Of a DNA stretch of 36,815 nucleotides, positions 1,301-36,815 are shown one piece after another. The notes beneath the pieces are model-generated. The model made no database searches. It had not been told where the DNA came from and saw nothing but the letters and a program-made list of their open reading frames with translations. The number at the start of each line of letters is the position of its first letter. Within the stretch, counting starts at the first letter, position 1. The DNA is from a virus (taxonomy: Duplodnaviria > Heunggongvirae > Uroviricota > Caudoviricetes): positions 1-36,815 of IMG/VR virus record IMGVR_UViG_2617270943_000002. The stretch is one strand, 5' to 3'. A program made the position numbers and the translations under genes.

Positions 1301-1332
1301 GTGATCTTTATCGAATAATACACGAGGTGAAA

Positions 1333-3939
1333 ATGAATAAGTTATTCATAAATCATATCAACGAAAATTATATTCAGATAAGTCATCGTTCATCTTTTAA
1401 TTGCAATACTGAATTGTTTAACGCAACTGTATCAGTTGGTAAGTCGCTTGAGGATTTAATCTGCGCTTGTCGGTCTCTGAGTATAGAAGGTGCGGATGGT
1501 AACAATTTAAGCATTATAACTAGCAGCCTGAAGAAAAAACTAAGAGAGCTTGTTGTTACAAATTTTCCCTTAACAAAAGTCTACCAACAAACAGAATTTG
1601 GTCCTGGAGTAAAACAAGAAGAAATCAACTCATCTTCTATGATAATTCAAATATTTCAATTTTACCTAGGGGCGATATCTAATTGTGATATCATATTACA
1701 TCTCAAATTTTTTGTTGAAAGCCTTTCTATTACGGAGTCATTTGTTGGCAAACCCCCAAAAACTCTTTTACATGAATATTTCCAAAGACATCAACACATA
1801 ATTCCTACATACAAAACCACCTTGGCTGGTGGGACCGAGCATGCACCAATATATGAGTCTGAAATAGCACTTCCTAATGGACAGATATTTATCGGAAGTG
1901 GTGAGAGTAAAAAAAAAGCAGAGAATAATGTTGCCAGTTTAGTTTGCAATCATTTGAATTTGAAAAACAATAAAAAACAAATATTAAAATCTAATAGTAT
2001 TATTTCAGCATGGGGTGGCGTACAGAAACCGAATGTTAAAGAGTGTTACATCAACAATGAATTGAACATGGCTTTTGGTTTTTCAAATAACTTTAATTCA
2101 ATCCAGGCTTTTATACCCCCTAGAATAAAGGGTAAAAATAGATCTATAAGTTCGCACAGAGATCTCGCTACTTTAGGTTCGCATTATATTTCCTTACTAG
2201 CTTCAGTAAGCCTACTTGAGATAATAAAAAATGGACAGAATGTTATTGACAGAACTACGTTAGGGATCATGGTGTTATCTGAAAAAAACTTTATGAGATT
2301 CTATAACTCAGGTTTTATTTCAATAGATTCTCTCCCCTATAAAGGACATCCAGATTATACAACTATATCTTATTATGTAGATTGTATTCAGGCATTGTTT
2401 GGAATGTCTCTTCTAAATCTGATAACTAAAAATAGTAAAATTCAATATAATGAGTTAATTTGCTCTTCCTCTGCAACAAATTGGTTGTACAAAAGAATAA
2501 AAAACTATAATTTGGATGAAGAATCTAATAAAGATATTATACCGACACTGACTTTGCATAGAATGCAAAAATACGGATTTGTATTTAAACTTATAAAAAA
2601 TCTAGATGTATATCAGCTTGAAATAGCTCATATTCGTAATGGGGATAATTTTGTTATCTATGCAGATCCTCTAATTCAAACAAGAAAAGATGCGATGACT
2701 AGGCTTGCGGGAAGTTGCCTTAAAGCATTGGATAGACTTGAAGGTGTGTTTCTCGAACCTCCTAGGTCTGAAGATTCTAAAAAAAATCAAAAAAAATTGA
2801 TTTCATACTTACTTCGTAATATATCAGAAGACAGGCCAGTGGTCTTAAGTGAAGAGCAACTCTCCGTAATATCAAAGAAAAAAAATGAATACGTACAATA
2901 TGACTTTGATATGCTTAAAGAAAAATTCTTGTCACAAGAAATGAATTACCTTGAAGCTTCAGTTATATTATTTTTACTCCACCAAAAATTAATGTTGGTG
3001 GACGACAGCATTGATAATATTTGCTATCTATCGCTACCTATTTGGAGTGATCAAAATTCTCTTGACTACGATAATTTTAATGATTCATCTGCAGATGCAG
3101 ATGCAGATGCAGATAATCATGTAAATATAAATTTTATTCTGGATTCCATTGAAGATTCCCAAGAAAAACAGTATATAAACTATGATAGCGCCGCTAAAGC
3201 CAGCAGTTTGGGTGAGATTTTATCAAGATATGATAGGTTAAATGCAGATTGTTTATCTCAATTATGGGATAAAAGGAAAAGTAGTTTTAAATACATTGAA
3301 GAAGCTGCAATAGTGCTCTCTAAAATTCGTTATGAGCGAGGATTAGATTTTAAGTTAATGAGTTACAAAAATTTTCTATCTACCAGCATGATTAAAGAAC
3401 TTCAACTTCCATCGTTTGATGAAGAAAACTCAAAACCCTTACAAATAAAGTCAGATTTACAGCTTGCAAAAGTAAAAAAACAATCTAAAAAAATATTTAG
3501 TGCTACTGAAAAATTTGATTTTTCAACAGCAGGGAGTTTTAAAATAAATAACTCTGATGAACGAAAGGTTATAAATAGAAACGTCACGATACGTATAGGT
3601 CAAAGCGACTTCAGAAATAAACTGATAAACGTTTGGGGGCAATGTGCCTTTACTGGGTGCAAAACAATAGCAGTACTTGATGCAGCTCATATTTATCCTT
3701 ACAGAGGAGATAAGGATAATCATATAAAAAATGGCTTGTTATTGCGTACTGATATACATCGTCTCTTTGATAACTATCTAATATCTATTGACCCAGCGAC
3801 TTTAAGGATTCACGTAAGTGATATGGTGCGCGATAGGTACTATCAGGAGCTGAATGGTGTCCTATTGAGGGACAAGGTTGGGTTGTCTATGCAAGCTCTA
3901 GAATACCATTGGTTTTATTTTACATCACAGGGTGATTAG
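1333..3939 (+). CDS. Large AT-rich protein with a dsRBD-like region (approx. aa 143-212) and a C-terminal HNH nuclease domain; function unknown, candidate defense nuclease
   Basis: ORF 1327(GTG)/1333(ATG)..3939 with GAGGTG RBS just upstream; dsRBM-like motif PPKTLLHEYFQ...PTYK...GGTEHAPIYESEIALPNGQIFIGSGESKKKAENNVASLV; HNH_2-like motif CAFTGCKTIAVLDAAHIYPYRGDKDNHIKNGLLLRTDIHRLFDNYLISIDP near the C-terminus; codon composition very AT-rich relative to the flanking phage genes. Confidence 0.6.
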   Translation: MNKLFINHINENYIQISHRSSFNCNTELFNATVSVGKSLEDLICACRSLSIEGADGNNLSIITSSLKKKLRELVVTNFPLTKVYQQTEFGPGVKQEEINSSSMIIQIFQFYLGAISNCDIILHLKFFVESLSITESFVGKPPKTLLHEYFQRHQHIIPTYKTTLAGGTEHAPIYESEIALPNGQIFIGSGESKKKAENNVASLVCNHLNLKNNKKQILKSNSIISAWGGVQKPNVKECYINNELNMAFGFSNNFNSIQAFIPPRIKGKNRSISSHRDLATLGSHYISLLASVSLLEIIKNGQNVIDRTTLGIMVLSEKNFMRFYNSGFISIDSLPYKGHPDYTTISYYVDCIQALFGMSLLNLITKNSKIQYNELICSSSATNWLYKRIKNYNLDEESNKDIIPTLTLHRMQKYGFVFKLIKNLDVYQLEIAHIRNGDNFVIYADPLIQTRKDAMTRLAGSCLKALDRLEGVFLEPPRSEDSKKNQKKLISYLLRNISEDRPVVLSEEQLSVISKKKNEYVQYDFDMLKEKFLSQEMNYLEASVILFLLHQKLMLVDDSIDNICYLSLPIWSDQNSLDYDNFNDSSADADADADNHVNINFILDSIEDSQEKQYINYDSAAKASSLGEILSRYDRLNADCLSQLWDKRKSSFKYIEEAAIVLSKIRYERGLDFKLMSYKNFLSTSMIKELQLPSFDEENSKPLQIKSDLQLAKVKKQSKKIFSATEKFDFSTAGSFKINNSDERKVINRNVTIRIGQSDFRNKLINVWGQCAFTGCKTIAVLDAAHIYPYRGDKDNHIKNGLLLRTDIHRLFDNYLISIDPATLRIHVSDMVRDRYYQELNGVLLRDKVGLSMQALEYHWFYFTSQGD
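3091..3114 (+). repeat. Hexanucleotide microsatellite (GCAGAT)x4 inside the 870-aa ORF, encoding ADADADAD
   Basis: gcagatgcagatgcagatgcagat read directly. Confidence 0.9.
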
Positions 3940-5249: not shown

Positions 5250-5776
5250 TTGCGTAACTCCGATAACTCGTTAAAACGTTCCATAAACATCCCGTAGGCA
5301 TGGCCTGGAGCCAGTGGAATCACTTTGAACATCTCTGTTGCCGGGATACCTTCCAATACAGGCCAGAAAGAGCCATCATCAAGTCCGAGATCGCGGCGTT
5401 CGGTTGCCAGCATGATGAGATCGGCATATTTCACTGGCGTGCTCATAACCGGGGGTAACCCGTATTTCTCACGGATTACGGCGTCTATTTTTTCTTCCAT
5501 CCGTTTATAGTCAGGAAGAAGGCGTTTCAGTGGTGCGGGAATGTCCTGGCAATACGCTTCTGTTGCATCATGCATTAACGCTTCAAAAGCAAATTCCTGC
5601 GGCACCAGCTGGCTGCAAAGAACCGCATGTTGGGCGACGCTGTAGAAGTGCGAAAGATGACCGGCAAAGCGACAGATATTTGAAAGGGAAACCGCGATAT
5701 CGTTAATATCGATGTCGTCTTTATTTATCTTGTCATAATAAAAATGCTTCCCGGAAAAAGTTTTAATAAATGACAT
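5240..5776 (-). CDS. HD-domain phosphohydrolase (5'-deoxynucleotidase-like, YfdR-type)
   Basis: HD motif (...AQHAV...LMHDATEAY...); start chosen at ATG 5776 (MSFIKTF...) preceded by GGAGA RBS; the track ORF extends to 5803. Confidence 0.65.
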   Translation of the reverse strand: MSFIKTFSGKHFYYDKINKDDIDINDIAVSLSNICRFAGHLSHFYSVAQHAVLCSQLVPQEFAFEALMHDATEAYCQDIPAPLKRLLPDYKRMEEKIDAVIREKYGLPPVMSTPVKYADLIMLATERRDLGLDDGSFWPVLEGIPATEMFKVIPLAPGHAYGMFMERFNELSELRKCA

Positions 5777-5903: not shown

Positions 5904-6728
5904 TCAGGCGGTGAAAGTACCAATAAAGGTTTCTACTTTGCTGTCTTTGAATTTCTCAACAAGCAGATCACGAAATTCGTTAGCCATTTCTTCCTGCACC
6001 GCTTCCAGCTGAATAATGCGCAGAACCAGTACAGGACGATCGCCAGTGATAATGCTGAGGCGTAATTTAAACGGACGTTCTTTCAGACCTTCAAACGGAA
6101 CGCATTTAAATTCAAATGCCACTGGCATAATGTCTTTGGTCTTCGCTTCGACAGACTCCATCAGGGAGCGTTTGCCGCTGAAGTCATTATCTTCAAAATC
6201 AGCGGTCTGGTTCGCTTCAATTGTGATTTTACGGATCGCCGCAGCCGCTTTGGTTGCCTGAATGGCGTCACCATTAGCATCAAAGCCCACAAGGTAGTCG
6301 GCCCAGTCTTCAATCCATTCTGCTAGTGACTTCTGGGAGTTACGCTCGCCGTTAACAGACAACAGGGCAGAGAACGGTGCTGTCTTTTTCAGTTTGAGAG
6401 TGGCGGTGTTATCTGCGTGACCTGGTTCATCAATAGTACCCAGGTTAAGCACACTGATGGCTCGCATATTATCGGCATCGATAAAGCAGCGGGTGCCTTC
6501 ATCTGCAAGATCTTTAGAATAACGGGTAAAGTCATCAATGCTGGCAGTGGAAAGCGCACCACGGAAACGGAAGCGATTTAAATTAAATTTTTCCAGATCA
6601 TGAATGCGGAAATTCTCAGGCAATGCCACAGCATCGGCACCAATCTTACTGATAATTTCATTAACATCCTGAGCAGAAATAAGAGCATGGATTTGATTAA
6701 TTGCGGTTGCGTCTAAGTTCTGAGACAT
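5904..6728 (-). CDS. DUF2303/YfdQ-like conserved prophage protein (274 aa)
   Basis: 274-aa ORF in the early-left operon; family assignment is from recalled similarity to CPS-53-type prophage proteins, not verified. Confidence 0.5.
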
Positions 6729-6793
6729 AATAAGTCCTCACTATATAAAGATATTCAGTGATGAGATAAATAATCAGTTAATTAAGAACGATA

Positions 6794-7156
6794 TTAATGA
6801 CCTGCTGCGCGGAGTTTTCCGTCAGGTTCACCGGCAAGAGTCAGTAATTGTCCCTGGTCTTCCTGCAGAATAGTCAGGCGACCACCGCGATTGACATACA
6901 TCGGTGTTTCGGTGGTGTCTTCTTCAGAAATTTTCCCGCGGTTAGTCGGGCGAACATATGAGAGTTTGTGTTTGATTTTCACACGGTTCTCATCAAATGG
7001 TTCGATTTCCAGGTTGAGTGAGACCTTACCTTTGGTTTTCGTGTTCATCACACCGGAAGCGACTTCACTGAGAACTGCGCCGATTTTGGTTTCAAATACG
7101 CCGCCGTCCAGCTCCCCGATAAATGCCTGCACATCAGTACTGCGTTCGCTAGCCAT
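6794..7156 (-). CDS. Hypothetical early protein (120 aa); first gene of the leftward operon
   Basis: ATG at 7156 preceded by GAGGAG RBS (MASERSTDVQAFIGELDGG...); the longer track ORF (to 7342) lacks an RBS. Confidence 0.5.
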   Translation of the reverse strand: MASERSTDVQAFIGELDGGVFETKIGAVLSEVASGVMNTKTKGKVSLNLEIEPFDENRVKIKHKLSYVRPTNRGKISEEDTTETPMYVNRGGRLTILQEDQGQLLTLAGEPDGKLRAAGH

Positions 7157-7771
7157 TTTGCTGCTCCTCATCATATCGACCCTGCAAGGCCGATTAGTTT
7201 CTCCACAAAACAGAGAAGAACACCTGCGGTGGCTGCCGCCCGGATGGATTGGGTTATGAGCCCGTCGTCCGGTGATGCTCTTCTCTGTTTTGTAAAAAGA
7301 GCGGTACCAGCCGGAAGCAAGTGTACAAACTGGTACCGCCAAAGCAGTGGCTGTTGTGGTGACCGGTGCTGATCTCCGGCTTGCGGTTATTTCAGACTCT
7401 CACGGGCGTTTAATTGCCCCGCCGAACAGCTCTTTTCCGCAATAGCTGCAATGTCTTTCGCGCATCAGTCTGCGCATTCACCACAACGCTGAGAGCACTT
7501 AGCCAGTTACGGCACCACACTTTGTCGCGGTTCCATAAATGCCCTCATCGTTGCACCCTGGTCTCTTCCCAGGCGTCAAACCGAATCGCCACGCTGGTTA
7601 GGCGTCTTATCAGCATCATCATTGACTTGCACATTCCGGCTACCTGGTTTGTTTGCTCGAGCAAGGAGTGGATTGTCCCCTTTAACGTCACCAGACCGCT
7701 AACGACGCATGTGCCATACGCCGTGTTACAACCAAATTTTGTTTTAATCTTGCCTGTGTTATGTTTCTTTT

Positions 7772-7799
7772 AGATACATTATGTATCTCATGGGTACAT
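7772..7799. promoter_or_regulatory. Operator-like palindromes downstream of cI (candidate OL/early-left promoter region)
   Basis: Perfect 17-bp palindrome AGATACATTATGTATCT (7772-7788) overlapping ATGTATCTCATGGGTACAT (7781-7799), which shares ATGTAT...GGTACAT arms with a site in the cI-cro intergenic region. Confidence 0.45.
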
Positions 7800-7808
7800 T
7801 GTCAAGTA

Positions 7809-7832
7809 TAAAAAAACCTGCCGAAGCAGGTT
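7809..7832 (-). terminator. Rho-independent terminator following cI on the minus strand
   Basis: Stem AACCTGC/GCAGGTT with loop CGAA; on the minus strand it is followed by a T-run (A-run 7809-7816 on the plus strand); sits just 3' of the cI stop codon. Confidence 0.6.
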
Positions 7833-7844
7833 CATAAATATTGA

Positions 7845-8519
7845 TTAGGCCTTTATTGTGTATCTTCTTGGTTTTCCCGAGAAAATCACTGTACCAATTA
7901 TAGAGCAATTACCGTTAATCTTAATGTAAGGCTCAGGCCAGTTTGGGTTTAATGCTTTGAGATAACGCTGTGTTCCATCTTCTATCAATCGCTTGAAGGT
8001 GGTTTCGCCTGTATCGTGCATCAATGCAATAACGTCGTCACCGTGGCAGGCAGGGACTTCGGGATCAACAAAAATCATGTCTCCAGGGCGGTACTCATCA
8101 ATCATTGAATCACCAATCACCCGCAAGATATAAGTCATTTCGCCACAGGGTACAGGGCAGGGATACGTTTCTGCTGTGCTCAAATCAACCTCAGAATAGC
8201 CAACTTCTTTCCATGCTCCGGCCTGTACCCATGATATGACAGGGACTAACGTTATTTGTTTGTTAGTGATTGAAACATCAGGTTTTTTTGTGATGTTCGT
8301 TGTCTGGTGTTCTTGATCAAGCCATCCGACAGGCAGGTCGAAACATTTTTCGATGTGCCGTGCCATGCTGTCACCGATATTTTTAGTAGCGCCATCCCCC
8401 ATAAACCTGCTGGTTTGGGTTGGCTCGCGATCAATCATGGTGGCAAAGGATGAATTTCCGCCAACACCATCTCTCAGTTTTCTGGCGTTAGACCGCCGGA
8501 TGTCATGGATTGTTTTCAT
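7845..8519 (-). CDS. cI: CI-type repressor (N-terminal HTH, C-terminal S24/LexA-like autopeptidase domain)
   Basis: 224 aa; C-terminal domain contains a GDSM motif consistent with the S24 peptidase Ser; divergent from the cro-like gene across an operator-bearing intergenic region. Confidence 0.8.
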   Translation of the reverse strand: MKTIHDIRRSNARKLRDGVGGNSSFATMIDREPTQTSRFMGDGATKNIGDSMARHIEKCFDLPVGWLDQEHQTTNITKKPDVSITNKQITLVPVISWVQAGAWKEVGYSEVDLSTAETYPCPVPCGEMTYILRVIGDSMIDEYRPGDMIFVDPEVPACHGDDVIALMHDTGETTFKRLIEDGTQRYLKALNPNWPEPYIKINGNCSIIGTVIFSGKPRRYTIKA

Positions 8520-8535
8520 AACGAAATTAAAACCT

Positions 8536-8604
8536 TTGTACCGATAAGGTACAAGTATCTTGAAGGTTCATTTCAATCATGTAATATGTATACCGGAGGT
8601 ACAT
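8536..8604. promoter_or_regulatory. OR-like operator region: two 19-bp imperfect palindromes between cI and cro
   Basis: TTGTACCGATAAGGTACAA (8536-8554; 7-bp inverted arms) and ATGTATACCGGAGGTACAT (8586-8604); the GGTACA arm recurs at the site left of cI. Confidence 0.5.
8560..8587 (+). promoter_or_regulatory. PR-like promoter for cro (-35 TTGAAG, 16-bp spacer, -10 TAATAT)
   Basis: Hexamers read directly; the second operator palindrome overlaps the -10 and predicted start site. Confidence 0.45.
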
Positions 8605-8609
8605 ATTGT

Positions 8610-8810
8610 ATGAAAGCGTATTGGGACTCTTTAACCAAAGAACAGCAGGGCGAGTTGGCCGGAAAAGTTGGCTCAACACCTGGCTACTTACGGCTGGTTT
8701 TCAATGGTTATAAAAAAGCCAGTTTTGTGCTGGCGAAAAAACTTGAGCAATGCACGTCAGGTGCAATTACGAAATCTGACTTAAGACCGGATATCTATCC
8801 GAAAGATTAA
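8610..8810 (+). CDS. cro: Cro-like HTH regulator (66 aa)
   Basis: ATG 8610 preceded by GGAGG; small protein MKAYWDSLTKEQQGELAGKVGSTPGYLRLVFNGYKK... divergent from cI. Confidence 0.6.
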   Translation: MKAYWDSLTKEQQGELAGKVGSTPGYLRLVFNGYKKASFVLAKKLEQCTSGAITKSDLRPDIYPKD

Positions 8811-8841: not shown

Positions 8842-9405
8842 ATGAGGCTAACCGTGGGTAAGTATCACTGGAAAGTAGAAAAACAGCCTGAGTGGTACGT
8901 GAAAGCTGTCAGAAAAACTATCGCAGCGTTGCCGGGTGGTTACGCTGAAGCAGCTGACTGGCTGGATGTAACAGAGAACGCATTATTTAACCGCCTTCGT
9001 GCCTATGGCGATCAGATTTTCCCGCTGGGATGGGCAATGGTTTTACAGCGCGCGGCTGGCACTCACTACATTGCGGATGCTGTCGCACAGTCTGCTGGTG
9101 GGGTGTTCGTATCGCTTCCTGAAATTGAGGAAGTAGAGAACGCCGATATAAACCAGCGCCTGCTGGAAGTCATTGAACAGATCGGCAGTTATTCAAAACA
9201 GATTCATTCAGCAATTGAAGACGGTGTAGTGGAACCGAATGAGAAGACAGCAATTAACGACGAGCTGTACCTCTCAATTTCGAAGCTGCAGGAGCATGCA
9301 GCACTGGTCTACAAAATTTTTTGCATTTCAGAAAGTAATGACGCCCGCGAGTGTGCAGCTCCGGGCGCCGTGGCGTGTCGTGACTGTGGAGAAACTAACG
9401 CATGA
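8842..9405 (+). CDS. Hypothetical protein at the cII position (187 aa); possible regulatory protein
   Basis: ORF directly downstream of cro; no motif recognised with certainty. Confidence 0.45.
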
Positions 9406-10691: not shown

Positions 10692-11182
10692 TCATGAGTC
10701 TTTTGAATGACGTTCAGAAATTCATTGAAGCCCATCCGGGCTGTACTTCCGGAGACATTGCGGATGCTTTTGCAGGTTACTCACGGCAGCGCGTTCTGCA
10801 GTCAGCAAGCAAGTTACGTCAGAGTGGGCGTGTGGCTCACCGTTGTGAAGGAGATACACGCAGACATTTCCCGCGCCTGACTGAGAGAGCGCAGGAGCCG
10901 GAACCACAACCTGTTCGTGAAACCAGACCTGTGCGCAATTTCTATGTCGGCACTAACGATCCCCGGGTGATTTTGTGCCTGATCCGCCAGGCTGAAGAGC
11001 TAGAGTCCAGGGGCTTATACCGTCGTGCTGCAACCGTGTGGATGGCGGCATTCCGTGAAAGCCACTCCCAGCCAGAACGAAACAATTTTCTGGCGCATCG
11101 TGAACGGTGCTTACGGAAAAGCAGCAAGCGCGCTGCATCGGGTGAAGAGTGGTATCTGTCAGGGAATTACGTGGGGGCTTAA
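10688..11182 (+). CDS. PerC/ANR-like putative transcriptional regulator (164 aa)
   Basis: Contains ...RGLYRRAATVWMAAFRES... resembling the W/RRAA motif of PerC-type proteins; assignment tentative. Confidence 0.4.
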   Translation: MIMSLLNDVQKFIEAHPGCTSGDIADAFAGYSRQRVLQSASKLRQSGRVAHRCEGDTRRHFPRLTERAQEPEPQPVRETRPVRNFYVGTNDPRVILCLIRQAEELESRGLYRRAATVWMAAFRESHSQPERNNFLAHRERCLRKSSKRAASGEEWYLSGNYVGA

Positions 11183-11508
11183 TGACGACGTTAACTCAAT
11201 GCCAGCAGCAGGTGCTGGATATGCTGATTTCTTATCAGAAAGAACGTGGCTTCCCGCCAACCAATCAGGAGGTGGCAACCATGCTGGGATACCGTTCAGT
11301 GAATGCAGCGGTGGAGCATCTTCGCGCACTGGAGAAAAAAGGCGTCATCACGATAAAGCGTGGCGTGGCCCGGGGGATAACGCTTCATACCGCGGTGAAG
11401 GACGACGACAGCGAGGCGGTCGGGATTATCCGCTCACTGCTTGCCGGTGAGGAAAACGCAAGGCTGCGTGCAACCCACTGGTTACATGAGAGAGGCCTGA
11501 AAGCATGA
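11182..11508 (+). CDS. LexA N-terminal DNA-binding-domain-like protein lacking a peptidase domain (108 aa)
   Basis: MTTLTQCQQQVLDMLISYQKERGFPPTNQEVATMLGYRSVNAAVEHLRALEKKGVITIKRGVARGI closely parallels the LexA winged-helix domain; ATG overlaps the upstream stop (TAATG). Confidence 0.6.
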   Translation: MTTLTQCQQQVLDMLISYQKERGFPPTNQEVATMLGYRSVNAAVEHLRALEKKGVITIKRGVARGITLHTAVKDDDSEAVGIIRSLLAGEENARLRATHWLHERGLKA

Positions 11509-28297: not shown

Positions 28298-28866
28298 AAA
28301 CGGGGGCTGAAGCCATTCGGGCGCTGGCCACACAGCTCCCGGCGTTTCGTCAGAAACTGAGCGACGGCTGGTATCAGGTACGGATTGCCGGGCAGGATGT
28401 CAGCACGTCCGGATTAACGGCGCAGTTACATGAGACTCTGCCTGATGGCGCTGTGATTCATATTGTTCCCAGAGTCGCCGGGGCCAAGTCAGGTGGCGTA
28501 TTCCAGATTGTCCTGGGGGCTGCCGCCATTGCCGGATCATTCTTTACCGCCGGGGCCACCCTTGCAGCATGGGGGGCAGCCATTGGGGCCGGTGGTATGA
28601 CCGGCATCCTGTTTTCTTTCGGTGCCAGTATGGTGCTCGGTGGTGTGGCGCAGATGCTGGCACCGAAAGCCAGAACTCCCCGTACACAGACAACGGATAA
28701 CGGCAAACAGAACACCTATTTCTCCTCACTGGATAACATGGTTGCCCAGGGCAATGTTCTGCCGGTTCTGTACGGTGAAATGCGCGTGGGGTCGCGGGTG
28801 GTCTCTCAGGAGATCAGCACGGCAGACGAAGGGGATGGTGGTCAGGTTGTGGTGATTGGTCGCTGA
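28195..28866 (+). CDS. I: Tail assembly protein I
   Basis: 223 aa, lambda gpI-like with a Gly/Ala-rich hydrophobic centre; start may be at a downstream ATG (e.g. 28234). Confidence 0.8.
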   Translation: MAATHTLPLASPGMARICLYGDLQRFGRRIDLRVKTGAEAIRALATQLPAFRQKLSDGWYQVRIAGQDVSTSGLTAQLHETLPDGAVIHIVPRVAGAKSGGVFQIVLGAAAIAGSFFTAGATLAAWGAAIGAGGMTGILFSFGASMVLGGVAQMLAPKARTPRTQTTDNGKQNTYFSSLDNMVAQGNVLPVLYGEMRVGSRVVSQEISTADEGDGGQVVVIGR

Positions 28867-36231: not shown

Positions 36232-36815
36232 TGGCATTCAGAATGAGTGAACAACCACGGACCATAAAAATTTATAATCTGCTGGCCGGAACTAATGAAT
36301 TTATTGGTGAAGGTGACGCATATATTCCGCCTCATACAGGTCTGCCAGCAAACAGTACCGATATTGCACCGCCAGATATTCCGGCTGGCTTCGTGGCTGT
36401 TTTCAACAGTGATGAGTCATCGTGGCATCTCGTTGAAGATCATCGGGGTAAAACGGTTTATGACGTGGCTTCCGGCAACGCGTTATTTATTTCTGAACTC
36501 GGTCCGTTACCGGAAAATGTTACTTGGTTATCGCCGGAAGGGGAGTTTCAGAAGTGGAACGGCACAGCCTGGGTGAAAGATGCAGAAGCAGAAAAACTAT
36601 TCCGGATCCGGGAGGCGGAAGAAACAAAAAACAGCCTGATGCAGGTAGCCAGTGAGCATATAGCGCCACTTCAGGATGCTGTAGATCTGGAGATCGCAAC
36701 GGAGGAAGAAACCTCATTGCTGGAAGCCTGGAAAAAATATCGGGTGTTGCTGAACCGTGTTAATACAACAACTGCACCGGATATTGAATGGCCAACAGTA
36801 CCCATTATCGAATAG
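36231..36815 (+). CDS. tfa: Tail fibre assembly protein Tfa
   Basis: 194 aa, lambda Tfa-like ([58 protein letters not shown]...); start overlaps the stf stop. Confidence 0.9.

Follow-up and report, generated by a model that had tools for sequence, protein, structure and literature searches.

In the immunity switch of phage lambda, an autocleavable repressor of the S24 type (CI), a divergent Cro and several inverted-repeat operators over both early promoters are arranged in the order left operon, leftward promoter and operators (PL/OL), terminator, cI, repressor promoter, right operators and rightward promoter (PRM/OR/PR), cro and cII. A second described system, the put RNAs of phages HK022 and HK639, suppresses transcription termination in cis via the zinc-binding domain of the RNA polymerase beta' subunit. 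Here we compare both with the immunity region of a Caudoviricetes sequence, IMG/VR record IMGVR_UViG_2617270943_000002 (36,815 nucleotides; this whole stretch is called the window), concentrating on its repressor gene, cI, on the operators around that gene and on the leader of the leftward transcript. The locus has the lambda order, with a cII-like gene after cro, the same type of repressor and several inverted-repeat operators over both early promoters, and is very probably the immunity switch of a lambdoid prophage of the SfV/e14 (ymfK-ymfT) type.

The 1.8 kb around the operators are 100% identical to a prophage in E. coli MB56, and at least 80% of this 1.8-kb query is covered in 565 of 5,426 complete E. 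coli genomes. The RefSeq names in matching genomes are ymfK (LexA family repressor), ymfT (helix-turn-helix (HTH) protein), ymfL and yfdP. The immunity region is 95.8-99.5% identical to those of SfV, cdtI, 2H10 and Stx2c-converting phages, the figure for Shigella phage SfV being 95.8% at the DNA level over cI, cro and both operator regions, and 98.5% identical to that of phage Ayreon; for the 1.8 kb, 2H10, Ayreon, cdtI and a series of Stx2c-converting phages are at 98-99% identity and SfV is at about 96%. The SfV GenBank record labels as "putative operator region" 69 bp that correspond exactly to window 8536-8604, so the sites on the right had been recorded before; for the pair on the left, the phage records examined seem to carry no operator annotation. 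Together, these identities, the gene names and the SfV operator feature place the region in the SfV/e14 immunity group, in which cI is of the YmfK/CohE type and cro of the YmfT/CroE type. Judged by their sequence, its operators are ordinary members of a known and already annotated immunity type. The absence of N from such phages is likewise already reported, as the published comparison of SfV, SfII and SfIV found no cII, cIII or N in them (PMC3851460).

Operators on both sides of the repressor gene

The preliminary description of this DNA had noted palindromes with a GGTACA half-site on either side of cI. All four of its sequences lie exactly where it placed them, including ATGTATCTCATGGGTACAT (7781-7799) and AGATACATTATGTATCT (7772-7788), and the palindromes, with three exact cores in a conserved layout, are of the repressor-operator type. 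We recognise five sites, which are palindromic and carry no strand:

7781-7799: OL1, ATGTATCTCATGGGTACAT, an exact core match, conserved in SfV, Ayreon and Edwardsiella phage EPP-1
7761-7779: OL2, ATGTTTCTTTTAGATACAT, a one-mismatch core, 20 bp from OL1
8586-8604: OR1, ATGTATACCGGAGGTACAT, an exact core match, with an EPP-1 equivalent, ATGTATCTAGGAGGTACAC, at the same position
8553-8571: probable OR2, AAGTATCTTGAAGGTTCAT, two mismatches to the core, conserved in EPP-1
8536-8554: OR3, TTGTACCGATAAGGTACAA, an exact core match, overlapping the putative −35 element and spacer of PRM

Within the 36.8 kb, exact matches to the shared core, TGTAY-N7-RTACA, number three, and each coincides with one of the reported sites. 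The expectation from 1,000 dinucleotide-preserving shuffles of the whole window is a mean of 0.084 and a maximum of 2, with none of the 1,000 reaching three. A one-mismatch core, TGTTTCTTTTAGATACA at 7762-7778, lies exactly 20 bp from the core at 7782. Cores with two mismatches are found window-wide at chance level (36, with 40 expected), which is why the assignment of OR2 rests on its conservation in EPP-1.

The homologous region of EPP-1 is only 69% identical to the window. After its repressor gene, a pair of sites stands 20 bp apart beside a TTGACA, and the gap between repressor and cro holds a second pair at a distance of 50 bp, so that the half-sites and the 20-bp and 50-bp spacings are kept while the central 5 bp vary. 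Its OL2 is a better copy, GTGTATCTTATAAGTACAT, at the same 20-bp spacing, and its OR3 equivalent, CTGTACCAAATTGGTACAA, stands at the same 50-bp distance from OR1. At OR2 (core 8554-8570) both half-sites are invariant in EPP-1 and the centre base alone is changed, from A to C, in DNA that has otherwise diverged; 8553-8571 is thus probably OR2. The inverted-repeat copies (three exact, one with one mismatch and one conserved with two) stand only in the two gaps on either side of cI; those on the left overlap PL and those on the right the probable PR and PRM. In EPP-1, the annotated repressor coding sequence (1290-2024 of that locus) takes in the equivalents of OR3 and OR2 and reaches the edge of OR1, and its start codon is probably annotated too far upstream. 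Within the cI coding region of the window, TGTACCCATGATATGAC at 8224-8240 repeats the first 12 nt of OL1 on the minus strand; the second half-site is absent and the likeness is probably due to chance.

The 17-bp palindrome at 7772-7788, which the preliminary description had listed alongside the operators, is perfect (8+1+8) but does not stand on its own. It arises where OL2 and OL1 meet and is made up of GATACAT (the right half of OL2), one base and ATGTATC (the left half of OL1), and we read it as a by-product of two abutting 19-bp operators. Its perfection and its position over the −10 and start of PL could point to an independent site for another dimeric regulator, or to a DNA cruciform. 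This is very unlikely, as the two half-sites one base apart account fully for the palindrome, and its outer bases are altered in SfV (GGTACATTATGTATC) and EPP-1 (AGTACATTATGTACC) while the operator half-sites are kept.

The genes and terminator between and beside the operators are as follows:

7845-8519, minus strand: cI repressor gene (ymfK type), 224 amino acids, from Pfam, PHROG, PDB and RefSeq matches
8610-8810, plus strand: cro-like gene (ymfT type), 66 amino acids, from PHROG, Pfam and structure matches
7814-7833, minus strand: intrinsic terminator of the cI transcript, GAACCTGCTTCGGCAGGTTT then TTTTATACTT, a stem (7833-7814) followed by a T-run

The cI protein matches Pfam Peptidase_S24 (1.5e-26, residues 93-212) and PHROG 4 (transcriptional repressor), and PHROG repressor families span residues 1-92. 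Its C-terminal domain matches the structures of the lambda CI C-terminal domain, UmuD and LexA in the PDB. By these matches it is an S24/LexA-type repressor with an N-terminal DNA-binding domain, of the autocleavable type, and it is the presumed binder of the operators. The cro product matches PHROG 35 (transcriptional repressor, 3e-15), with weak matches to Pfam YdaS and HTH_3 and to the Cro structures 8co2 and 8c7k. The next gene, 8842-9405, is CII-like, with matches to Phage_CP76/CII and PHROG 101. The region thus has the divergent small HTH Cro-type gene followed by a cII-type gene that is expected of a lambdoid switch. The SfV and Ayreon records, too, have a terminator feature at the position of the cI terminator.

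Three promoters can be placed among these sites:

7778-7805, minus strand: PL, TTGACA (7805-7800), 16 bp, CATAAT (7783-7778), 11 of 12 positions matching the sigma-70 consensus
8560-8587, plus strand: probable PR, TTGAAG (8560-8565), 16 bp, TAATAT (8582-8587), read from the sequence
8526-8554, minus strand: putative PRM, TTGTAC (8554-8549), 17 bp, TTTAAT (8531-8526), by analogy with lambda PRM

PL was expected at the site beyond the cI terminator, and a near-consensus leftward promoter bracketed by OL1 and OL2 does lie there, with the terminator itself confirmed. Its predicted start is near 7771. Both SfV and EPP-1 conserve it, and the Ayreon record has a promoter feature at its position. OL1 fills its spacer and overlaps its −10, and OL2 covers the end of the −10 and the start site. 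On the right, the suggestion that the 8586-8604 site overlaps the −10 of PR is plausible for the probable PR, where OR1 takes in the final 2 nt of the −10 as well as the predicted start. That promoter is weaker than PL, however, matching 8 of 12 consensus positions and falling under the scan threshold. The Shine-Dalgarno sequence of cro, GGAGG, lies at the centre of OR1. OR2 covers the −35 of PR, with its centre about 43 bp upstream of the cI ATG. This ATG, at 8519, is 7 nt past the end of the putative PRM −10, so the cI mRNA would probably be nearly leaderless, as in lambda.

In the switch that these positions suggest, a CI dimer would recognise inverted repeats of 17-19 bp, TGTAYC-N5-GRTACA. 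On the left, OL1 and OL2, with centres 20 bp apart, would let it cover the spacer, −10 and start of PL. On the right, OR1 would act on the −10 and start of PR, the weaker OR2 on its −35, and OR3 on the −35 and spacer of PRM. In the lysogen, PL and PR would be kept silent by CI at OL1/OL2 and OR1/OR2, CI at OR3 would provide cI autoregulation, and RecA-stimulated self-cleavage of CI would release both early promoters.

Several points weigh against this picture. The PR and PRM hexamers are weak and the promoter scan reports neither, and OR2, with its two mismatches, is statistically at chance level within the window. OR2 and OR3 abut, their centres being 17 bp apart rather than the 23-24 bp of lambda, so the cooperative geometry of lambda is not simply transferable. 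Cro may also share or prefer some of the sites. There are further differences from lambda: the half-site TGTAYC is unrelated to the lambda TATCACC, only two clear OL sites were found, the second OR centre spacing is 33 bp, and the window has no rex, no N and no recognisable nut boxB.

The leader of the leftward transcript

The preliminary description had found no minus-strand open reading frame (ORF) of at least 60 amino acids in 7343-7770, and this holds; the longest encode 48 (7545-7691) and 36 amino acids (7410-7520). It had proposed that leftward antitermination either differs from that of lambda or that the region encodes small products. The absence of N stands, and RefSeq annotates no N protein in the matching prophage. 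The small proteins do not; the region holds structured RNAs instead:

7554-7726, minus strand: module A, a 173-nt structured RNA, from comparative alignment and a covariance model
7491-7546, minus strand: hairpin H6, GAGGGCAUU (7546-7538) pairing with AGUGCUCUC (7499-7491), found by eye in the alignment
7356-7484, minus strand: module B, a cloverleaf-like RNA whose minimum-free-energy fold is a four-way junction (z = −2.2)
7294-7340, minus strand: tL, an intrinsic terminator that separates the RNA modules from yfdP (GGCGGUACCAG...CUGGUACCGC then UCUUUUU), from its fold
7205-7293, minus strand: I1, an 89-nt leader hairpin with 25-nt arms, upstream of the yfdP ATG (7156)

The PL transcript would thus open with about 610 nt of non-coding modular RNA (module A, H6 and module B) and then meet a conserved terminator and a long hairpin ahead of yfdP.

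Module A begins about 45 nt past the predicted PL start. In the proposed structure it consists of a hairpin, H1, a stem, P2, that closes a variable domain, and two further hairpins, H4 and H5; the CACC loop of H4 pairs with a downstream GGUG to form a pseudoknot, which has one compensatory type, the AACC-GGUU of the window. Aligned relatives show invariant blocks between variable stretches with compensatory changes. An invariant 19-mer, GGUAGCCGGAAUGUGCAAG / GGTAGCCGGAATGTGCAAG, is found in at least 120 IMG/VR contigs, which hold 103 distinct variants in 42 clusters at <90% identity. A further 24 contigs, from about 20 Enterobacterales species, and two probably mis-binned metagenome-assembled genomes have it as well. 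Among 42 sequences, 91.2% of the cells at the proposed pairs are paired, compared with 31-50% when the partners are slid, and double changes are seen at 15 pairs. The covariation score, 0.256, exceeds the 0.121 of shuffles, and none of 500 shuffles was as high. RNAalifold offers an alternative in which the loop of H1 pairs with the 19-mer, where every base concerned is invariant. The evidence for the structure is comparative throughout, and it counts against it that the folding energy of the single sequence is no better than that of shuffles (z = +0.22).

No Rfam family matches module A in the window, the permissive scan of 7100-7900 included, or in eight related loci. That scan (E<=10) gave sub-threshold matches only, driven by the cI terminator, and at gathering thresholds the whole window gives IS009 at its far end only. 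The module A covariance model, R1, finds one copy in the window, at 142.8 bits. No second copy on the opposite strand or in the rightward direction, of the putR kind, was found in 45 lambdoid loci, and one locus has a tandem duplicate (L027). Module A is the first element after the repressor gene in about 75 loci of at least five immunity types. In about 45 loci of epsilon15-like phages it lies in an antisense cassette between portal and terL, usually followed by tRNA-Arg, and in about 17 loci of P1-like phages it follows trnI, 192 nt before ban. In some contigs a promoter abuts its 5' end. A text search of the literature for the conserved RNA sequences gave nothing relevant.

Downstream of module A, the 3' strand of H6 together with AGCGUU is the exact leader found directly before tRNA-Arg(UCU) in phiV10-like and SPN1S phages, whose tRNAs were called by ARAGORN. 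The stem that closes module B is GUGGUGA/UCACCAC; inside it are a D-arm-like GCGC-8nt-GCGC, a central arm that varies and a hairpin, GCCGG-9nt-CCGG. Its family has at least 107 unique variants in a common frame, with central inserts of about 20-150 nt. This frame, GUGGUGA-AU-GCGC AGGCUGAU GCGC ... GCCGG AGAUCAGCA CCGG-YCACCAC-AAC, is seen in at least 120 IMG/VR contigs (L159-L260) and looks as if it served to present a variable RNA.

Module B resembles a tRNA in that its four-way junction is formed with an acceptor-like stem, a D-like hairpin and a T-like one. Unlike a tRNA, it has no anticodon arm, its T-like loop has 9 nt and no GTTCRA motif, and its central arm is hypervariable in sequence and in length (about 20-150 nt). 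ARAGORN calls no tRNA or tmRNA in the window and Rfam RF00005 has no match in module B even at E<=10, although the same tools call the true tRNAs of the P1, phiV10-like and SPN1S loci; we reject the identification of module B as a tRNA. The phage tRNAs of the P1 ban operon and the tRNA-Arg of phiV10 and SPN1S nevertheless have the same upstream leader, AGUGCUCUCAGCGUU, and the same neighbours. A linker, (A/C)GYGUUGUR or UUGGUUGUAAC, precedes tRNAs, module A and module B alike (window 7485-7490 and 7727-7739, about 2675-2687 in the P1 locus L004, and the phiV10-like locus L005), and may be a common processing signal. Modules A and B are candidate new RNA families, widespread in enterobacterial phages and absent from Rfam.

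The stem of tL co-varies and its U-tract is kept in ST64B, phiNP and mEp390. The tail of tL reads CGCUCUUUUUACAA, which is boxA-like; it lies at 7303-7290, overlapping the end of the stem and the U-tract, and is followed by the 89-nt hairpin and no boxB. The 156-nt segment that contains tL and I1 has z = −7.7, and I1 is conserved in ST64B with compensatory changes. The promoter scan shows no promoter-like site between tL and yfdP.

ORFs are present in the leader, among them the 48-amino-acid one with ATGA-coupled follow-ons, and the mEp460 and Ayreon records annotate hypothetical proteins in 7343-7770. That the region encodes small proteins, on either strand, is nonetheless highly improbable. 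The 48-, 36- and 119-amino-acid leader ORFs have no match in Pfam and PHROG scans, and no ORF is conserved across the 42 module A variants (<90% identity), in which the longest ranges from 19 to 58 codons in differing frames and sequences. In the variable segments the indels are not multiples of three, and the conserved blocks co-vary as base pairs. The 119-codon ORF (7414-7773, plus strand) is antisense to the PL leader and is annotated as hypothetical, in whole or in part, in mEp460 and Ayreon. It overlaps RNA with covariation support and is probably spurious.

Immunity-specific DNA ends at about 7748, with flanks common to heteroimmune phages and a mosaic beyond. The window and SfV have 6700-7341 in common, and SfV has 787 bp, including orf33, in place of 7342-7747. 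Pieces of 7342-7747 recur in mEp460, Stx2a phages, P1/P7/D6, phiV10-like phages, SPN1S and many Klebsiella phages. This 406-bp segment is similar to DNA that adjoins tRNA genes. SfV has the same PL, cI terminator and yfdP-yfdS early-left genes as the window, but its OL2 reads TGTACC where the window has TGTATC, and its interval from PL to tL holds another conserved RNA (module C), orf33 (PHROG 3195) and its own variant of module B, with no module A.

Module C is a conserved leader RNA at 3455-3560 (minus strand) of the SfV locus, and it lies just after PL in ST64B and phiNP. It consists of GGCAGGACGCCCACGAAGUAGCCGCC, a co-varying stem and then GAUGAUUCG, and takes the position of module A in these siblings. 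It is found in 51 phage records from Salmonella, Yersinia, Pantoea, Klebsiella, Pectobacterium and Aeromonas, and neither Rfam nor a covariance model of put matches it. mEp460 carries module A and mEp460_4F5 carries module C. One contig (L255, minus strand, about 2530 as oriented) has the H1-like hairpin and UAAGCGGUC of module A followed directly by module C, which suggests that leaders are assembled from shuffled sub-domains.

SfV also differs from the window in its rightward operon, where 5544-5732 of the locus, in "orf37: immunity region", matches an isrK-like RNA (64 bits) and the C4 antisense RNA (82 bits). Presumably they account for the termination immunity by RNA (Roberts et al. 2007). 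In the window, different genes occupy this part and both RNAs are lacking: C4 (RF01695) is absent from it at the gathering threshold and from 7100-7900 at E<=10. Termination-mediated immunity of the SfV kind was therefore rejected as an explanation of the leftward region, since it maps to rightward RNAs that are absent here.

Elsewhere in the window, the RefSeq annotation of MB56 has a putative dsRNA-binding protein and a 661-amino-acid HNH endonuclease adjoining the integrase (about 1328-3939) and a second small LexA-family protein in the rightward operon (11182-11508). The IS009 match (RF02111) is full-length, at 36574-36772 on the plus strand, with 224 bits.

What the leader RNAs may do

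The group, which lacks N, must still pass the conserved tL to express its early-left genes, including xis and int, and this raises the question of antitermination. The only conserved features upstream of tL are structured RNAs, which are widespread in enterobacterial phages. One proposal is that module A is a cis-acting, protein-independent antiterminator, an analogue of HK022 put that replaces N: the nascent RNA would modify RNA polymerase so that it reads through tL and later terminators into yfdP and on to xis/int. We consider this possible but unlikely.

Its position is in favour. In an N-less lambdoid phage, putL opens the PL transcript and precedes terminators (PMC9378689); module A occupies the same place, on the early transcript just past PL of a phage without N. 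About 75 loci, with at least five repressor types, have module A as the first element behind a repressor-controlled promoter. The phage group has no N and yet has a conserved terminator before the first gene and no promoter-like site beyond it. In the siblings SfV, ST64B, phiNP and mEp460_4F5 a different conserved leader takes the same place, so that the modules look interchangeable. Module A is single-copy and confined to the left operon, like the sole putL-like RNA annotated in HK639. Module A and put have short collinear motifs in common, ACGGCG...CAUGCGUCG and CGG(C)AAUG, and 4.7 Mb of phage loci contain the composite motif hardly anywhere else, although that test was set up after the similarity had been seen.

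The RNAs themselves are different. Module A has about 155-175 nt, four helices and a pseudoknot, while put has about 70-75 nt and two stems. A put covariance model (R2, built from 36 put sequences; cut-off E<=10) recovers HK022 putL at 96 bits and the divergent putR at 38 bits, but neither the window nor any of 16 loci gives it a match at module A, and the module A model has no match in HK022 or HK639. Membership of module A in the put family is therefore rejected. Comparison with the HK022 immunity region by blastn and nhmmer yielded nothing beyond an 18-mer inside nun, a chance match. The contexts of module A also speak against antitermination: in P1-like phages it is in mid-operon, with no terminator between it and ban, and in epsilon15-like phages it is part of the antisense tRNA-Arg cassette. 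Elsewhere, in the late region of the window, the put model has a partial match to stem II only, at 28522-28556 on the minus strand (13.9 bits, E ~0.05), which is probably due to chance.

The second proposal is that modules A and B are stand-alone, stable non-coding RNAs cut from the PL transcript as tRNAs are and acting in trans. RNase P, E or III would cut at the GUUGUR linkers and H6 hairpins, the products could be decoys against tRNA-targeting defences, antisense or specificity RNAs, or protein scaffolds, and tL would end the RNA operon. We hold this to be a real, if tentative, possibility. In P1-like and epsilon15-like phages module A is found together with tRNA genes, the 3' strand of H6 with AGCGUU is the exact 5' leader of tRNA-Arg(UCU) in tRNA-bearing phages, and one linker precedes module A, module B and tRNAs. 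Module B has a cloverleaf fold with a hypervariable central arm, and tL lies directly 3' of it. Against this, neither module is recognised as a tRNA, tmRNA, YrlA, C4 or any other Rfam family, and an efficient tL would leave the early-left genes without an evident promoter. The tRNA-cassette contexts and shared linkers favour processed, stable RNAs at least as much as an antiterminator.

Module A could also belong to a new class of leader RNA, about 160 nt long, pseudoknotted and unrelated to put by profile, which makes RNA polymerase or the transcript resist tL and Rho, is exchangeable with module C and also serves tRNA cassettes. We regard this as rather doubtful. In one lambdoid contig (L089, about 3330-3375) a hairpin and an exact rrn-type boxA (GCTCTTTAACAA) come after module A, which hints at boxA/Nus-dependent protection against Rho in some leaders.

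The immunity type described here is carried by about 10% of complete E. coli genomes and by SfV, cdtI and Stx2c-converting phages, and the induction of such prophages governs toxin and O-antigen-modification genes. For this SfV/e14 type, TGTAYC-N5-GRTACA is a clean operator consensus that is open to testing. Beyond the operators, the comparison provides the anatomy of an N-less leftward leader and two or three widespread, uncatalogued structured RNA motifs. With this map of the leader, the question of how SfV-type phages antiterminate becomes experimentally approachable.

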